NCBI RefSeq assembly: GCF_037179585.1 | Contig: NZ_JAPYKO010000004.1 | Span: 213,758 to 253,757 of the forward strand | Source of the DNA: Mesorhizobium argentiipisi | GTDB taxonomy: Bacteria > Pseudomonadota > Alphaproteobacteria > Rhizobiales > Rhizobiaceae | Length of the DNA stretch: 40,000 nucleotides | Direction of reading: 5' to 3' | In this document: positions 8,577-39,039 of the stretch, piece after piece | How the letters are laid out: every line of letters starts with the position of its first letter | How positions within the stretch are numbered: position 1 is the first letter of the stretch | Notes under the pieces: generated by a model | Told to the model about the DNA's origin: nothing | The model's database searches: none | The model's input: only the letters and a program-made list of their open reading frames with translations | Position numbers and translations under genes: made by a program

Positions 8577-8593
8577 GTTTGCGAATTGCAAAC
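8577..8593. promoter_or_regulatory. exact palindromic motif GTTTGC-GAATT-GCAAAC in the divergent TerS / DUF3489 intergenic region
   Basis: Read directly from the sequence. It is a member of the 17-bp motif family described in the findings. The 90-bp intergenic region is also where a lambda-type cos site would be expected. Confidence 0.5.
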
Positions 8594-13473: not shown

Positions 13474-13503
13474 ATAAAGCCGGATTCGTTTGCGGTTCGT
13501 CAA
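13474..13503 (-). promoter_or_regulatory. candidate promoter TTGACG-N18-CTTTAT with GANTC in the spacer
   Basis: The minus strand reads GTTGACGAACCGCAAACGAATCCGGCTTTAT. It lies about 35 nt upstream of ATG 13437. It contains a motif-family copy at 13488..13504. Confidence 0.45.
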
Positions 13504-13582
13504 CATCCACGCTTCGCGGTTCGGCATGTATTTTTCCTGAAATCGTCCATACGCCCGAAAAATACAGCTAACCCGTTGTTTC

Positions 13583-23813: not shown

Positions 23814-23890
23814 TGGTTGCGGGGGGCGGATTTGAACCGCCGGCCTGTCGGGCATGAACCGACCGCGCTACCGGGCTGCGCTACCCCGCG
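23814..23890 (-). tRNA. tRNA-Met (anticodon CAT), initiator-like, with an atypical anticodon loop
   Basis: Hand-folded 77-nt cloverleaf CGCGGGGTAGCGCAGCCCGGTAGCGCGGTCGGTTCATGCCCGACAGGCCGGCGGTTCAAATCCGCCCCCCGCAACCA. It has a C1xA72 mismatch, a GGTTCAAATCC T-arm and an encoded CCA. The loop is UUCAUGC (G37). Confidence 0.8.
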
Positions 23891-23898
23891 AGAAGGGC

Positions 23899-23928
23899 AC
23901 TAAGCCCGAGTCGTTTGCGTTTCTTCAA
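23899..23928 (-). promoter_or_regulatory. candidate tRNA-Met promoter TTGAAG-N18-CTTAGT with GANTC in the spacer
   Basis: The minus strand reads GTTGAAGAAACGCAAACGACTCGGGCTTAGT and ends 8 nt before the tRNA 5-prime end. It is homologous to the 24372..24401 element. Confidence 0.45.
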
Positions 23929-23939
23929 CGGCCGCAACG

Positions 23940-24296: not shown

Positions 24297-24320
24297 CTTG
24301 GTTCCCTGGTTTCATCAGTC

Positions 24321-24362
24321 AAAAAAAGCGGCCCGCCCTGGGAGGTCTATAGAGCGGGCCGC
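24321..24362 (-). terminator. strong Rho-independent terminator downstream of the primase gene
   Basis: Perfect 9-bp GC stem GCGGCCCGC / GCGGGCCGC (24354..24362 and 24328..24336) with a 17-nt loop. T7 follows on the minus strand (24321..24327). Confidence 0.75.
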
Positions 24363-24371
24363 AACATCACG

Positions 24372-24401
24372 ATAATCAACGAGTCGTTTGCAATTTGTCA
24401 A
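24372..24401 (-). promoter_or_regulatory. promoter-like element TTGACA-N18-GATTAT between the primase stop and the terminator
   Basis: The minus strand reads GTTGACAAATTGCAAACGACTCGTTGATTAT. It contains motif copy 24386..24402 and GAGTC at 24381..24385. Confidence 0.45.
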
Positions 24402-24404
24402 CGA

Positions 24405-30279: not shown

Positions 30280-30771
30280 TTACGCCGCCACCGCCTCGCG
30301 CTCGTCGGTAGCGATAGCGTCGCGGACCGCGCGGCGCTCGGAAGGGGTGCCCCGGCCAGTCGTCAAAGCGTCATTGAAACGGCAGTACGGCGCCCGGCTG
30401 TCGAGATTCCGCGGTGCCCCGCAAAACAGCGAAGTTTCGCGGTCGTAGTGTTCATGATGGCCCCAAAGCGGGAACTCGCACCCGCATGAGGTCAGGCGGC
30501 CACGGGGCACGCCGTCAAAGCCTGGCGCCTTCTCGGGGAATCTTGCTTTGAAAGCCTTCGGCGCCGGCCCCTCGACATGAGTCTTCGGCGCCATCGTCTT
30601 GTGAAAGCGGTTCGAACCGTGTCCACGCGGCCGGAACTTCTCGGGGTTGCGGCGAGCCAGGCCGTAAAGCTCTTCCGGGCTTGACCCGCAAAGCTCGGCG
30701 ATCTCGGCGCCGTTCATTCCTGTGGCCCAAAGGCGCGCGGCCTCGGCCTTGTTTTCGGCTGTCCATTTCAT
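30280..30771 (-). CDS. GcrA-like cell-cycle regulator homologue
   Basis: RBS GGAGAA. The N-terminus MKWTAENKAEAARLWATGMNGAEIAELCG and the C-terminus CGCEFPLWGH...SLFCGAPRNLDSRAPYC parallel the two conserved GcrA regions. Confidence 0.65.
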   Translation of the reverse strand: MKWTAENKAEAARLWATGMNGAEIAELCGSSPEELYGLARRNPEKFRPRGHGSNRFHKTMAPKTHVEGPAPKAFKARFPEKAPGFDGVPRGRLTSCGCEFPLWGHHEHYDRETSLFCGAPRNLDSRAPYCRFNDALTTGRGTPSERRAVRDAIATDEREAVAA

Positions 30772-30788
30772 GCGTCAATTCTCCGAAT

Positions 30789-30807
30789 CGTTTGCATTTT
30801 GCAAACG
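30789..30807. promoter_or_regulatory. perfect 19-bp palindrome CGTTTGCA-TTT-TGCAAACG between the methylase and the gcrA-like gene
   Basis: Read directly. GAATC (30785..30789) abuts it. It lies 18-36 nt upstream of ATG 30771. Confidence 0.55.
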
Positions 30808-30811
30808 CTTG

Positions 30812-32461
30812 TTACGCGGCAACGGCCTTCCGGGCGTTGATTTGCGAGACGTGGGCGACGGTGTCATCGCCGAAGAGCGGTAGGCCCTCGGCGGGCTCTA
30901 TCTCTGTCCGCGCACGTTTCTTCGTTTCCGGGCCGGCGAGCATAAGCGACATGCGCTTCGCAATATCGGCTTGGTATTCTTCCTCCCGCTCTATCAGGAT
31001 GGCGTTGCACCCTTCCCAAAAGGCGGCCTCGCCAGTGGTGCCGGTGCCAGCGAACGGGTCGAGCACGGTTCCGCCCTTGTGGCAGATGAGACGGACAAGC
31101 CAGCGCATCAGGTCCACCGGCTTAACCGTGGGGTGTTTTGAGCCGAGGCGGTCGTCGCCGTCCGCCTTCGCCGAATAGAAGAACCTGGACGCGCTGCCGG
31201 CGTCGAGCCGAGGCGGGAAGGGGTCACGCGCGCCAATCGGGTTATAGACGTTGTTCCGCTTCCGCTCGCCATGCTCGGGGCCTACGGCGCCCTTCTGGCC
31301 CGACGCATCGGGGAACGCGGCCACAACTTCCGCGCTGCCATCGTGCAGGATATTGGCCGGGTAGCGGCCGTCGACCGGGCGGGCCTCGCCCTCTTTCCCG
31401 AGGCCGGAATTCGACTCGTTCCATGTGTTGCCGCCGCCGGCCTTGCCGCCCCATCCCGTGGGCTTCTCGGCGTCAATGCGGCAAGCGTCCACGTTGATGC
31501 CGCCGGTTCCGTGGGCCAGGGTGTTTTCCGCTACGGTGCCAATCATCGGCTTGCGGGCCAGGCATATCGGTTCCCATGCCGGTTTAAGCGCGGTGCCCCA
31601 TCCATCCCATTCGGCGGCCTCGGGCGTCCCGTGCGAATAGATATCGCGCTCATAGGCGGGACGCTCTTCGCCCTTCCCGGCGCTGAGAAGCGCGCTGTTG
31701 CGCATATCGTTGACAAGGGTTTCAGTGCCAAGGAAATGGCCGAGGAAACCGCCCTTGCGGCGGAACGCCTTGTCGATCCGGCCGCGCAAGCCTTTGGACA
31801 CCTTGCGCTTGTCCCGGCTCTTCGCCCATTTGATAAGCCGGTCGTACCTGGCGCGCACCTCGGCCCGTTCGTCCAGCCATTGCCGGAACAGATGGTCGTC
31901 AATGCCCTTTGAAACGCTATGGTTCTTCGGGAAGCCGGTTCCGTAGCACCATGCCAGCATCCCGCCGAATTGGCTGTCTTCGATGCAGCGGAAGAACGCT
32001 TCAACCTGGGCCGACGAAAGGGTTTCGAGGAACCGCACAACGGGGGTGTCACTGGCGAGCATGTTGAGAATGTTGTCGCGGACTTCGAAGCCGGCGCGAG
32101 CGATGGCGGACGCCATGTCGTGATAAGTCCGGGTGCCCGAGAAGGCCACCAAGTAGCCGCCAGGTTTCAGCACGCGAAGCACCTTTGCCCATAGGTCCGA
32201 ACGGAAGGCGATATCGCCGCCGTCCCATGTCTTGCCCATGAAGCCAGCGCTAGACCTGGCAAACACGCCCGCGCTGCCTTCCTTCGGCTCGGACGGCGCC
32301 GCGTCTTCGGCGCCGAAGCGGGCCACAATCGAGGTGAGGTGGTAGGGCGGGTCGCAGCATACCGCGTCGACCGAGCCCTCGGGGATATCGTCAAGGCGGG
32401 CGAAGCAATCGCCGCCGAGTAGGACGACCCGGCCGTCCAGAAATTCCGTTCGGTTCTTCAT
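30812..32461 (-). CDS. beta-class N6-adenine (or N4-cytosine) DNA methyltransferase, CcrM/M.HinfI-like motif order, with a large central insertion
   Basis: ATG 32461 (MKNRTEFLDGRVV). DPPY is near the N-terminus (AVCCDPPYHL). HPTVKPVDLMRWLVRL and LDPFAGTGTTGEAA are near the C-terminus. Confidence 0.85.
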   Translation of the reverse strand: MKNRTEFLDGRVVLLGGDCFARLDDIPEGSVDAVCCDPPYHLTSIVARFGAEDAAPSEPKEGSAGVFARSSAGFMGKTWDGGDIAFRSDLWAKVLRVLKPGGYLVAFSGTRTYHDMASAIARAGFEVRDNILNMLASDTPVVRFLETLSSAQVEAFFRCIEDSQFGGMLAWCYGTGFPKNHSVSKGIDDHLFRQWLDERAEVRARYDRLIKWAKSRDKRKVSKGLRGRIDKAFRRKGGFLGHFLGTETLVNDMRNSALLSAGKGEERPAYERDIYSHGTPEAAEWDGWGTALKPAWEPICLARKPMIGTVAENTLAHGTGGINVDACRIDAEKPTGWGGKAGGGNTWNESNSGLGKEGEARPVDGRYPANILHDGSAEVVAAFPDASGQKGAVGPEHGERKRNNVYNPIGARDPFPPRLDAGSASRFFYSAKADGDDRLGSKHPTVKPVDLMRWLVRLICHKGGTVLDPFAGTGTTGEAAFWEGCNAILIEREEEYQADIAKRMSLMLAGPETKKRARTEIEPAEGLPLFGDDTVAHVSQINARKAVAA

Positions 32462-32462
32462 G

Positions 32463-32681
32463 CTAAAACAAGTCCCCTTGTTGCGGTTCGGGTGCCGGGG
32501 GCTTCGGCGCCGGGGGGTCCACCGGCTCGGCCTTGCGCACCGTTTGCATTTCGTCAACGCGATGCGCGTAGCATCGCCAATTCCCGAGGCGGCCAGCCAA
32601 AAGTTTGACGTTGTAACCGAAGCTCGCGGCGCCGCCGCACACTTCACAAACAAAATCCCCAGGGCCGGCGACTCGTGTCAC
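32463..32681 (-). CDS. small hypothetical protein (possible zinc ribbon), start uncertain
   Basis: GTG 32681 gives VTRVAGPGDFVCEVCGG...WRCYAHRVDEMQTV. There is no RBS. The upstream 60 nt of the track ORF contains a promoter-like motif. Confidence 0.35.
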   Translation of the reverse strand: MTRVAGPGDFVCEVCGGAASFGYNVKLLAGRLGNWRCYAHRVDEMQTVRKAEPVDPPAPKPPAPEPQQGDLF

Positions 32682-32768
32682 GATTGATATAATCCGATAA
32701 TCGTTGACAAAATGCAAACCATGTTCCCCGCCGGAACGCAAGGCCCCAAAATGGCCCCATTAAAAAGA

Positions 32769-33002
32769 TCAACTCGGAAGCAATTTCGCTAGGTCCACCG
32801 TGAGCCCCCTTTTTACCGCGATCTTAAGCAGTTTTGGCACATATGCGGCCGGAACAGTGCCCGCCATCCCCGGCGGCCGGCGCTTCGCGTTATCCCATCC
32901 GGCGATTGTGGAAGGGCTTAGGCTGAGTAACCGGGCGAGGTCCGCGCGTTTTCCGTTTGCAAACAAAAGAGTGACATATTGCAAAGGCGTGTTAACTTTC
33001 AT
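32769..33002 (-). CDS. Cro/YdaS-like HTH regulator
   Basis: 77 aa, divergent from the cI-like gene. GKRADLARLLSLSPSTIAGW is an HTH pattern as in the YdaS/Cro family. Confidence 0.55.
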   Translation of the reverse strand: MKVNTPLQYVTLLFANGKRADLARLLSLSPSTIAGWDNAKRRPPGMAGTVPAAYVPKLLKIAVKRGLTVDLAKLLPS

Positions 33003-33012
33003 TGCTGATACC

Positions 33013-33029
33013 GTTTGCTATTTGTTAAC
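33013..33029. promoter_or_regulatory. operator candidate GTTTGC-TATTT-GTTAAC flanked by direct repeats GCTGATAC (33004..33011, 33033..33040)
   Basis: Read directly in the 79-bp divergent cro/cI intergenic region. Confidence 0.5.
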
Positions 33030-33081
33030 AAGGCTGATACGGACTTGATTCGTTAAGTGCATGAGGGGAGTGTTGAGCGTA

Positions 33082-33711
33082 ATGACGAAGCCCGACGTCG
33101 ACTGGTTTCGCCGCAAGCTTGAAGAGCACCGGCTTTCGCAATCCGGCCTTGGCCGTATGCTTGGTATCGATAAATCGAGCATGAGCTTGCTTTTGGCCGG
33201 CAAGCGCAAACTCACTCTTACCGCCGCCGCCGATATGGCCCGCATCTTGGGCGTTACCGCGACCGAGGTCATGGAACGTTTCGGAGTTCGCGTTGACGGC
33301 ATCCGGGCCGGCGATGATGTCACGCCCCAAATGCTGCCCTTTGAGGGCTGGATTGATGAAAGCTCCCATGTGATCCCCGACTCGTCCGGGCGCCGCAAGC
33401 GCATGGTTGACGTGGGAACGAACGTTGAGCCCGGTTCCAGCGCTTTCCAGTGGCGGACGCCGCAAAGCAAAATGGACGTTCTGGACGGCTGGATAGTGGT
33501 GTCTGGCCCGAGGCGCGAGGCCGACGACAAGATGATCGGCCGGGGATGCGTGGTAGGCCTCAAGGGCGGCGACATCATGCTTCGGCTTGTCCGCCGGGGC
33601 TACTCGCCAGGTACGCACCTTCTCTTCGGCATCATGGGCACGCCGGACGTGACCGAAGGCGAGGTCGAGTGGTACGCGCCCATTGTGATGATGAAGCCCG
33701 CGACGGCCTGA
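33082..33711 (+). CDS. cI-like repressor (XRE HTH + LexA/S24-like C-terminal domain, catalytic residues unclear)
   Basis: ATG 33082 follows GAGGGGAG. The HTH is LSQSGLGRMLGIDKSSMSLLLAGKRKLTLTAAADMARILG. The C-terminal beta-rich domain follows the S24 layout, but GxSM is absent and the Lys position reads R. Confidence 0.65.
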   Translation: MTKPDVDWFRRKLEEHRLSQSGLGRMLGIDKSSMSLLLAGKRKLTLTAAADMARILGVTATEVMERFGVRVDGIRAGDDVTPQMLPFEGWIDESSHVIPDSSGRRKRMVDVGTNVEPGSSAFQWRTPQSKMDVLDGWIVVSGPRREADDKMIGRGCVVGLKGGDIMLRLVRRGYSPGTHLLFGIMGTPDVTEGEVEWYAPIVMMKPATA

Positions 33712-33768: not shown

Positions 33769-33831
33769 TTGACGGCCTCGATAGCGTGTTTGCATATTAC
33801 AAACAGTTGGCAAAACGCAAACGAAGGATTC
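33769..33831 (+). promoter_or_regulatory. candidate early-left-type promoter (TTGACG at 33769..33774) with two tandem operator motifs
   Basis: TTGACG-N17-GCATAT. The motifs are GTTTGCATATTACAAAC (33788..33804) and GTTGGCAAAACGCAAAC (33806..33822). GATTC lies at 33827..33831 and ATG at 33839. Confidence 0.5.
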
Positions 33832-38963: not shown

Positions 38964-39039
38964 TGGTGCCGCTTGCGTGACTCGAACACGCGACCCCATC
39001 ATTACGAATGATGTGCTCTACCAACTGAGCTAAAGCGGC
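38964..39039 (-). tRNA. tRNA-Thr (anticodon CGT)
   Basis: Hand-folded 76-nt cloverleaf GCCGCTTTAGCTCAGTTGGTAGAGCACATCATTCGTAATGATGGGGTCGCGTGTTCGAGTCACGCAAGCGGCACCA. All four stems pair. Confidence 0.9.

Follow-up and report, generated by a model that had tools for sequence, protein, structure and literature searches.

Do the temperate phages of alphaproteobacteria tap the cell-cycle methylation circuit of their hosts, or do they bring their own copy of it? The question is raised by two adjoining genes in a 40-kb stretch of Mesorhizobium argentiipisi DNA, referred to here as the window, which holds a prophage; one gene encodes a DNA methyltransferase (30812..32461), and the other encodes a protein related to GcrA (30280..30771). 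The locus offers a small system in which the question can be tested. The original prediction, made from the letters of the window, described the methylase as having its motifs in the CcrM order and proposed that the phage carries the pair as a private writer and reader of methylated GANTC, with which it would time a family of promoters sharing a palindromic motif. The reading that we favor, with a confidence that falls a little short of even, is that the two genes are a pair from the early operon of the phage, that the palindrome is an operator for the phage repressor, and that three promoters carrying GANTC are under host control of the CcrM/GcrA type.

GANTC in three candidate promoters

The motif GTTTGC-N5-GCAAAC, with up to 2 mismatches allowed, is found 16 times in the window compared with 2.5 +/- 1.5 times in shuffled sequences, and a weaker copy at 23913 (3 mismatches) brings the number to 17. 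GANTC pentamers directly abut the motif at four sites (13483, 23908, 24381, and 30785), just as had first been noticed. Because GANTC is two-fold depleted across the window (79 sites compared with 165 +/- 12 in shuffles, or 0.2% per position), these four abutting sites lie far above chance. The pentamer stands at offset 0 in 4 of 19 oriented half-sites, compared with an expectation of about 0.04 (binomial P about 6e-8, or about 6e-7 when conditioned on the usual G after GCAAAC, with the caveat that the sites are related promoter cassettes and not independent draws). The excess that had been claimed is thus upheld, with its figures of 0.4% per position and 4 of 15 copies replaced by those given here. 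Among unpaired GCAAAC hexamers, none of the 24 in the window has GANTC at offset 0. The density of GANTC is 1.9 per kb in coding and 2.6 per kb in intergenic DNA, a small difference that is not decisive.

At three of the four sites, the minus strand reads TTGACn (the left half of the palindrome), N4, GCAAAC, GANTC, three bases, and a -10-like hexamer (CTTTAT, CTTAGT, or GATTAT), with a spacer of 18 nucleotides (nt), and the other 16 of the 19 oriented copies lack a -10 at this distance. GANTC occupies positions 11-15 of the 18-nt spacer, about -20 to -16 and centered near -18. Published GcrA sites are centered at -20 +/- 1 or -30 +/- 2 in the spacer and have the motif YGAKTCG (PMC9976885), which is fitted on one strand by three of the four abutting sites compared with 19 of the 79 GANTC sites (24%) window-wide. 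The original prediction had placed GANTC between a -35 and a -10 at all four sites; this is borne out at these three and not at 30785, where there is no -10 at 18 nt. For that reason, the neighboring palindrome at 30790 was rejected as a promoter of the GcrA-like gene, the conserved GGAGAA beside it being better read as a ribosome-binding site, and a leaderless promoter with a 16-nt spacer is possible at this site. A scan of IMG/VR for TTGAC-N5-GCAAAC-GANTC returned 60 matches, among them three contigs of this phage group, and the others look like chance matches to its 15 fixed bases.

The candidate promoter at 24401-24372 is the best sigma70 match between 22.5 and 34.5 kb (10 of 12 positions, 18-nt spacer). 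Closely downstream of it lies an intrinsic-terminator hairpin (-26.4 kcal/mol, z = -3.4) that is conserved in two related loci, L002 and L005, and together, promoter and hairpin would yield an RNA of ~45 nt or act like the PR'/tR' unit of lambda. The loop of this hairpin, AUAGACCUCCC, contains an anti-Shine-Dalgarno-like CCUCC.

In the mechanism that we propose, the left half of the operator would double as the -35 at the three promoters, with the -10 18 nt further on, and these promoters would drive, respectively, the tRNA-Met, a short terminated RNA followed by orf101, and the neck module. Their GANTC sites would be methylated at least by the host CcrM, and the promoters would be subject to GcrA-type, methylation-sensitive control, with the canonical GcrA of the host as the competent reader. 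CcrM and GcrA are conserved across Alphaproteobacteria (PMC9437464), and the host pair would be the simplest reader system for these sites, sufficient both to write and to read them. The phage methylase may serve to maintain methylation of phage DNA during fast replication, provided that GANTC is within its target, and the phage GcrA-like protein would more probably work bound to sigma70, as a cofactor or a competitor whose DNA specificity is changed or absent, than as a reader of GANTC bearing N6-methyladenine (m6A). The features on which this account draws are collected in Table 1.

Table 1. Coordinates of the gene pair, operator copies, candidate promoters, and other features within the window
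Feature	Position	Strand	Details
Orphan beta-class DNA methyltransferase, 549 amino acids	30812..32461	-	PF01555 (N6_N4_Mtase) at 78.5 bits; phrog_67 at 1.6e-57
Divergent GcrA-family protein, 163 amino acids, intact open reading frame	30280..30771	-	Residues 1-45, three-helix domain; low-confidence linker; C-terminal CCC(H) region
Candidate promoter	24372..24402	-	-35 TTGACA (24401-24396), half-site GCAAAC, GACTC (24385-24381), -10 GATTAT (24377-24372)
Predicted intrinsic-terminator hairpin	24320..24365	-	12-bp GC stem, loop AUAGACCUCCC, U7 tail; ~7 nt past -10 of promoter 24401-24372
Candidate tRNA-Met promoter	23899..23929	-	-35 TTGAAG, GCAAAC, GACTC (23912-23908), GGG, -10 CTTAGT (23904-23899); tRNA 5' end ~8 nt downstream
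Candidate promoter upstream of small open reading frame and neck/tail-completion gene	13474..13504	-	-35 TTGACG, GCAAAC, GAATC (13487-13483), CGG, -10 CTTTAT (13479-13474)
Fourth GANTC site, GAATC	30785..30789	.	Abuts palindrome 30790-30806; 13 nt ahead of GGAG ribosome-binding site; no -10 at 18 nt
Perfect 17-bp palindrome GTTTGCATTTTGCAAAC	30790..30806	.	Between methylase and GcrA-like genes; GGAG ribosome-binding site of GcrA-like gene lies 3'
Second perfect palindrome GTTTGCGAATTGCAAAC	8577..8593	.	Between divergent small-terminase gene and + strand gene at 8579; conserved in L081-L083
Four operator copies (32542, 32703, 32948, 33013)	32542..33029	.	In and around cro-like gene and ORF92; syntenic copies in all close relatives
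Two adjacent operator palindromes	33788..33822	.	One over -10, the other over start region of promoter 33769-33798
Promoter-like site TTGACG, 18 nt, CATATT	33769..33798	+	Predicted driver of orf160-recE-recT
Cro-like gene	32769..33002	-	First gene of methylase/GcrA-like operon; divergent from CI-like gene; 77 amino acids in relatives
CI-like repressor	33061..33711	+	XRE-type helix-turn-helix and C-terminal domain; HTH_31/HTH_3 and phrog_4 matches
tRNA-Met (CAT)	23814..23890	-	ARAGORN; Rfam RF00005 at 60.1 bits
tRNA-Thr (CGT)	38964..39039	-	Same tRNA at edge of related loci L002 and L012; tRNA-Lys instead in L015

The palindrome as a probable repressor operator

The shared motif had initially been taken for a promoter element, which remains apt in so far as its left half can supply the -35 at three sites; across the window as a whole, it is better read as a repressor operator laid over varying promoter parts. 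Copies of the motif cluster around the CI-like and cro-like genes, and the rest lie in short intergenic gaps. The 17-bp palindrome is most likely a dimer-type operator for the CI-like repressor. It is read as an operator because its position relative to the core promoter (-10, start, or -35) differs from site to site, and it is assigned to the CI-like protein because the recognition helix of that protein (S42, L43, G47, K48, R49) is invariant, at 38-40% overall identity, in the phages that share the motif, unlike helix 3 of the GcrA-like protein, which varies freely in them. The GcrA-like protein is an unlikely binder of the palindrome on three counts, namely, that GcrA is a monomer, that helix 3 varies while the motif is constant, and that the motif shifts relative to the -35 and -10. 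A sigma54 reading of the motif (GG-N10-GC) was rejected on inspection, as the spacing is GG-N6-GC.

The 17-bp operators of lambda-type phages and the stoperators of mycobacteriophage L5 are inverted repeats present in many copies, with a cluster in the immunity region and further copies scattered between genes, and they overlap core promoters. The palindromes of the window match this pattern in their length, number, inverted-repeat symmetry, and overlap with promoter elements in the immunity region. Unlike those sites, some of the window copies also supply a -35 hexamer, and it is by comparison that we infer binding by the CI-like protein. Two smaller observations concern individual copies. 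A GATTC is present at 33827, 4 nt past the second of the adjacent palindromes at 33788-33822, and in a related locus (L087, 16706-16750), an operator lies 8 nt ahead of a tRNA gene, with a CATTAT inside the palindrome as the likely -10.

Conservation of the gene pair and of GANTC

The pairing of the two genes is conserved. In each of the 11 related loci with both genes (L002-L007, L012, L013, and L086-L088), the methylase gene immediately precedes the GcrA-like gene, over a range of identity in the GcrA-like protein that runs from 93% down to 36%; L015 duplicates L003, and L014 begins a short way upstream of the GcrA-like gene, so that only the last 20 codons of the methylase are included. The operator between the two genes is likewise kept in each of the 13 relatives that include the position.

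The pentamer beside the operator is more variable. Upstream of the GcrA-like gene, it reads GATTC in the window, L002, L012, and L013, GATTT in L003, L005, L007, and L015, and ACTTT in L004. At the site after the primase (24381), GACTC is found in 6 of 9 loci, although the sequence 3' of it differs. The tRNA promoter keeps GANTC in 5 of 6 loci, and the whole arrangement precedes tRNA-Met in the window, L002, L003, L005, and L015. At the neck promoter, the -35 and -10 are kept in the orthologues, with GANTC in 2 of 4 and, among the relatives, GAATC only in L081.

Several of these comparisons weigh against methylation-sensitive control by the host. L007 keeps the tRNA-Met promoter and the tRNA, yet has GTTTT in place of GANTC; the neck-promoter pentamer is GATTG in L082 and in L083, the latter sharing a contig with L004, which has the gene pair; and GANTC is lost at the orthologous promoter in L012 and L013. 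L006 and L086-L088 keep the operator, including the copy between the paired genes, and GANTC at offset 0 is present in 0 of their 26 oriented half-sites, for which reason any epigenetic role of GANTC would be lineage-restricted or dispensable. In addition, the N of GANTC never varies between orthologous copies of one site, and selection on GANTC as such is therefore inseparable from conservation of a longer block. To this may be added the position of the GANTC center near -18, ~2 bp off the published GcrA optimum.

Such a longer block is the substance of the first alternative, in which GANTC has no epigenetic role and is simply part of a cassette, TTGAC-N5-GCAAAC-GAnTCG, disseminated through duplication and through recombination where modules meet. 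Between orthologous copies, the pentamer is either kept whole or lost; mosaic breakpoints fall right after GCAAACG (L012 and L013) or right after GACTCG (other loci); G follows GCAAAC in 11 of 19 motif copies, so the conserved block extends past 17 bp; and the distant relatives function without GANTC. What this account leaves harder to understand is that G-A-n-T-C is common to all three paralogous promoters, even though N5, the N of the pentamer (A, C, and C), the three bases 3' of it, and the -10 are not the same in them, that GANTC is otherwise depleted in the window, and that the pentamer is present in every copy with a -10 (3 of 3) and in almost no copy lacking one (1 of 16). We regard it as unlikely, yet as a serious competitor to host control of the three promoters.

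Two further features of L012 and L013, the closest relatives, were noted. In both, the mosaic junction immediately follows the operator (GCAAACG), and the GANTC is gone. An MmeI-like restriction-modification gene (L012, 18085-20319; L013, 16984-19233) lies in both beyond the primase region, in the place taken by orf101 and tRNA-Met in the window.

The methylase

The class assigned to the methylase at the outset is confirmed, as motif IV (DPPY, residues 37-40) is N-terminal and motif I (FAGTG, residues 470-474) is C-terminal, the order of beta-class enzymes. It is an orphan phage enzyme of this class, probably of the N6-adenine type because of its DPPY motif. The "CcrM order" of its motifs is uninformative on specificity because the order is common to all beta-class enzymes, M.RsrI, M.MboIIA, and DpnA among them. 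The ~300 residues between DPPY and FAGTG are family-specific, and this middle region, in which specificity resides, resembles nothing characterized. With the NF050803 equivalog model for CcrM, the protein scores 56 bits against a cut-off of 830, and in a comparison with solved structures, CcrM (6pbd_A) and M.RsrI (which targets GAATTC) match it equally, with E about 1e-11, the alignments being confined to residues 11-43 and 441-506, that is, to the catalytic motifs. BLASTP gave no similarity to phiLM21_p027 or to its larger homologue PPF1_81 (E at least 0.3), whereas the same yardstick places PPF1_81 and phiLM21_p027 at 4e-11 from each other. The enzyme is not an orthologue of CcrM.

By tblastn, the methylase family is present in 687 phage records, mostly from Mycobacterium, Gordonia, and Arthrobacter phages, and also in Caulobacter phage DMCA, Dinoroseobacter phage R4C, and Rhodobacter phages of the Cronus type. 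Our literature search turned up neither a characterized member of this family nor a Mesorhizobium methylome that gives it a motif. The ATG start codon of the methylase falls one base past the stop codon of the upstream ORF92. An apparent truncation of the gene in L012 was rejected, as it reflects an assembly gap of 10 N.

The GcrA-like protein

For the neighboring protein, sequence alone is insufficient to establish membership of the GcrA family, and the assignment holds at the level of the superfamily. The protein scores 17.7 bits (E = 0.0049) against the Pfam GcrA family PF07750, under the gathering threshold of 26.9 bits, while each of its 18 relatives matches PF07750 at E<0.01 (lowest value, 6.7e-7). 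With a profile of the clade, 1877 relatives were retrieved, the canonical GcrA helix VSRNAVIG being present in some of them, and GcrA in the PDB was matched at E = 0.11; an hhalign comparison of this profile with the GcrA of DMCA covered the first 28 residues only, with a probability of 14%. A scan with one genome per species for relatives of the protein gave a single locus. In PHROGs, the clade corresponds to phrog_16311, listed as function unknown. Among the 1877 relatives are many longer proteins in which the N-terminal helix-turn-helix domain is repeated in tandem, in 2-13 copies.

The N-terminal domain has W3 and W15 and is modeled as three helices by AlphaFold2 (AF2), with a predicted local distance difference test score (pLDDT) of 84-91 over residues 1-45, and Foldseek aligns it with GcrA from the RNA polymerase complex 7ye1_G at a probability of 0.99 and a root-mean-square deviation of 1.2 A over 42 columns (E-value 0.39). 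The C-terminal region, for which pLDDT is below 50, reads CxFPLWG...SLFCGAP...PYCxFH, and its invariant cysteines (C98..C117..C130-x2-(H)) mirror the CCCH zinc finger of GcrA (C118, C133, C143, and H146). Both conserved GcrA regions can thus be recognized, as had been proposed, with one qualification: the His ligand position holds His in 17 of 18 relatives, including the 93%-identical P0001, and Asn133 in the window copy (codon at 30373-30375). The CCCH zinc finger of GcrA is needed for sigma70 binding, which is abolished by alanine at the His ligand (PMC5887438), and the window allele may be impaired by H133N.

The residues with which GcrA reads GANTC and m6A are R33, N34, I37, G38, H41, and R42; the G of GANTC is hydrogen-bonded by R33, which also forms the m6A pockets together with N34 and I37 (PMC5887438). 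At these positions, the GcrA-like protein has P32, E33, Y36, G37, R40, and R41, so that only the equivalents of G38 and R42 are kept. The aromatic residues that contact sigma70 (GcrA positions from PMC5887438) are partly kept (W120 as F100, F132 as F116, and Y142 as Y129), while the equivalents of F130 and Y151 are not. Taken together, the model and alignments indicate that the protein keeps the N-terminal fold of GcrA and probably the zinc-finger scaffold of its sigma70-binding domain, with a recognition helix that differs.

The role of the gene pair

A protein of this kind would also suit a second alternative, in which the methylase shields replicating phage DNA from restriction and the GcrA-like protein is a host-takeover factor that binds sigma70 region 2 and redirects the cell-cycle transcription of the host, both independently of the promoters described here. 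Phage GcrA homologues, including that of phiCbK, have been interpreted in this way (PMC3556154, PMC13459779), and the methylase family is widely distributed among phages whose hosts lack CcrM and GcrA. A diverged recognition helix and a variable helix 3 fit a protein that contacts mainly sigma70, as do the aromatic contact positions that remain. The same positions also tell against it, since the equivalents of F130 and Y151 are missing and the window copy carries H133N, and it leaves both the strict adjacency of the two genes and the association of GANTC with promoters unexplained. Host takeover is, in our view, a minority possibility, on a par with the cassette account.

Considerably less probable is the scheme of the original prediction, in which the phage methylase writes m6A at GANTC and the GcrA-like protein, as a sigma70 cofactor, reads it in the spacer and so times the promoters after induction. 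The adjacency of the two genes at 11 of 11 loci, the GANTC in the spacers of three candidate promoters, the presence in DMCA, two genes apart, of a canonical GcrA (74.8 bits) and a methylase 42% identical to that of the window, and the fact that GANTC specificity has been demonstrated for several unrelated methylases encoded beside replication modules in alphaproteobacterial phages (PMC5537653, PMC7139368) are all consistent with it. On the writer side, however, only the catalytic motifs are common to the methylase and CcrM, nothing is shared with phiLM21_p027 or PPF1_81, and the family is mostly found in actinobacterial phages; on the reader side, P32/E33 replace R33/N34, Y36 replaces I37, and the window copy has Asn at the zinc ligand. 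Phages that keep the gene pair without GANTC at the orthologous promoters also count against it, and the sequence evidence supports neither GANTC as the target of the phage methylase nor the GcrA-like protein as a reader of m6A-GANTC. The broader idea that a group of rhizobial temperate phages carries its own writer-reader cassette, in which the methylase would mark GANTC or an overlapping site and the sigma70-bound GcrA-like protein would turn on operator-controlled promoters, with a methylation-gated middle stage comprising the tRNA-Met, the short RNA, and the neck module, is more doubtful still.

Relation to known systems

Host control through CcrM and GcrA, the reading that we prefer, invites comparison with Caulobacter crescentus (PMC3667746, PMC4647560, PMC5887438, PMC9976885), with which the locus shares a GcrA-type three-helix domain and a zinc-finger-like Cys/His region, GANTC in the spacer of predicted sigma70 promoters, and a beta-class methylase. 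The differences are considerable. Unlike CcrM, the phage methylase has a different target-recognition region and lacks the CcrM C-terminal domain; unlike in GcrA, R33, N34, and I37 are replaced, and the phage GANTC is centered about -18 rather than -20; and unlike in Caulobacter, both genes adjoin in one phage operon.

GcrA homologues are known in phiCbK-like and other Caulobacter phages (PMC3556154, PMC13459779). One parallel is DMCA, in which, as in the window, the GcrA-family gene and the homologous methylase gene lie near each other, ahead of a replicative helicase. The GcrA proteins of Caulobacter phages differ from the GcrA-like protein in that they pass the Pfam threshold and keep the canonical helix (VSRSAVIGK in DMCA). 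Among phage methylases, CcrM-like GANTC specificity has been shown for phiLM21_p027, Phi2LM21_p21, Phi3LM21_p21, and PhiOC_p213, and the experimentally proven enzymes fall into two families other than that of the window methylase (PMC5537653, PMC7139368). The window methylase resembles the phiLM21_p027-type enzymes in being encoded by an alphaproteobacterial (pro)phage at the head of a replication module, and it differs from them in having no sequence similarity to phiLM21_p027 or PPF1_81, its likeness to CcrM-type enzymes being at the level of motifs. An examination of alphaproteobacterial phage genomes for asymmetry of GcrA sites found none (PMC9437464).

Phage GcrA homologues and phage methylases of CcrM specificity have each been reported before, separately, and the literature that we searched contained no paper linking a phage GcrA-like gene to a neighboring methylase or to GANTC in phage promoters. 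What is new here is the conserved order of methylase, GcrA-like gene, and helicase across 11 related (pro)phage loci, echoed independently in DMCA, and three candidate promoters with GANTC at a GcrA-type position, one of them anchored by a tRNA gene. Should the link to methylation fail, the GcrA-like clade (phrog_16311) would represent a sigma70-binding scaffold with a re-tooled DNA-binding helix, and the motif would be an ordinary repressor operator.

Prophage setting

The window, with a G+C content of 60.5%, is a Mesorhizobium prophage, that is, a temperate phage. It is identified as such by its head, terminase, portal, RecET, and CI/Cro-like genes, together with the fact that the close homologues of the GcrA-like protein all come from Mesorhizobium. 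The structural genes encode a major head protein, a head decoration protein, the portal, the large and small terminase, and a neck protein, and further genes encode a DNA ligase, RecE/RecT-like proteins, an excisionase-like protein, a primase, and a helicase. The early (replication) operon on the cro side runs entirely on the minus strand, in the order cro-like, ORF92, methylase, GcrA-like, helicase, two more genes, endonuclease, and primase. The tRNA-Thr gene at 38964-39039 is probably the attachment site and the boundary of the prophage.

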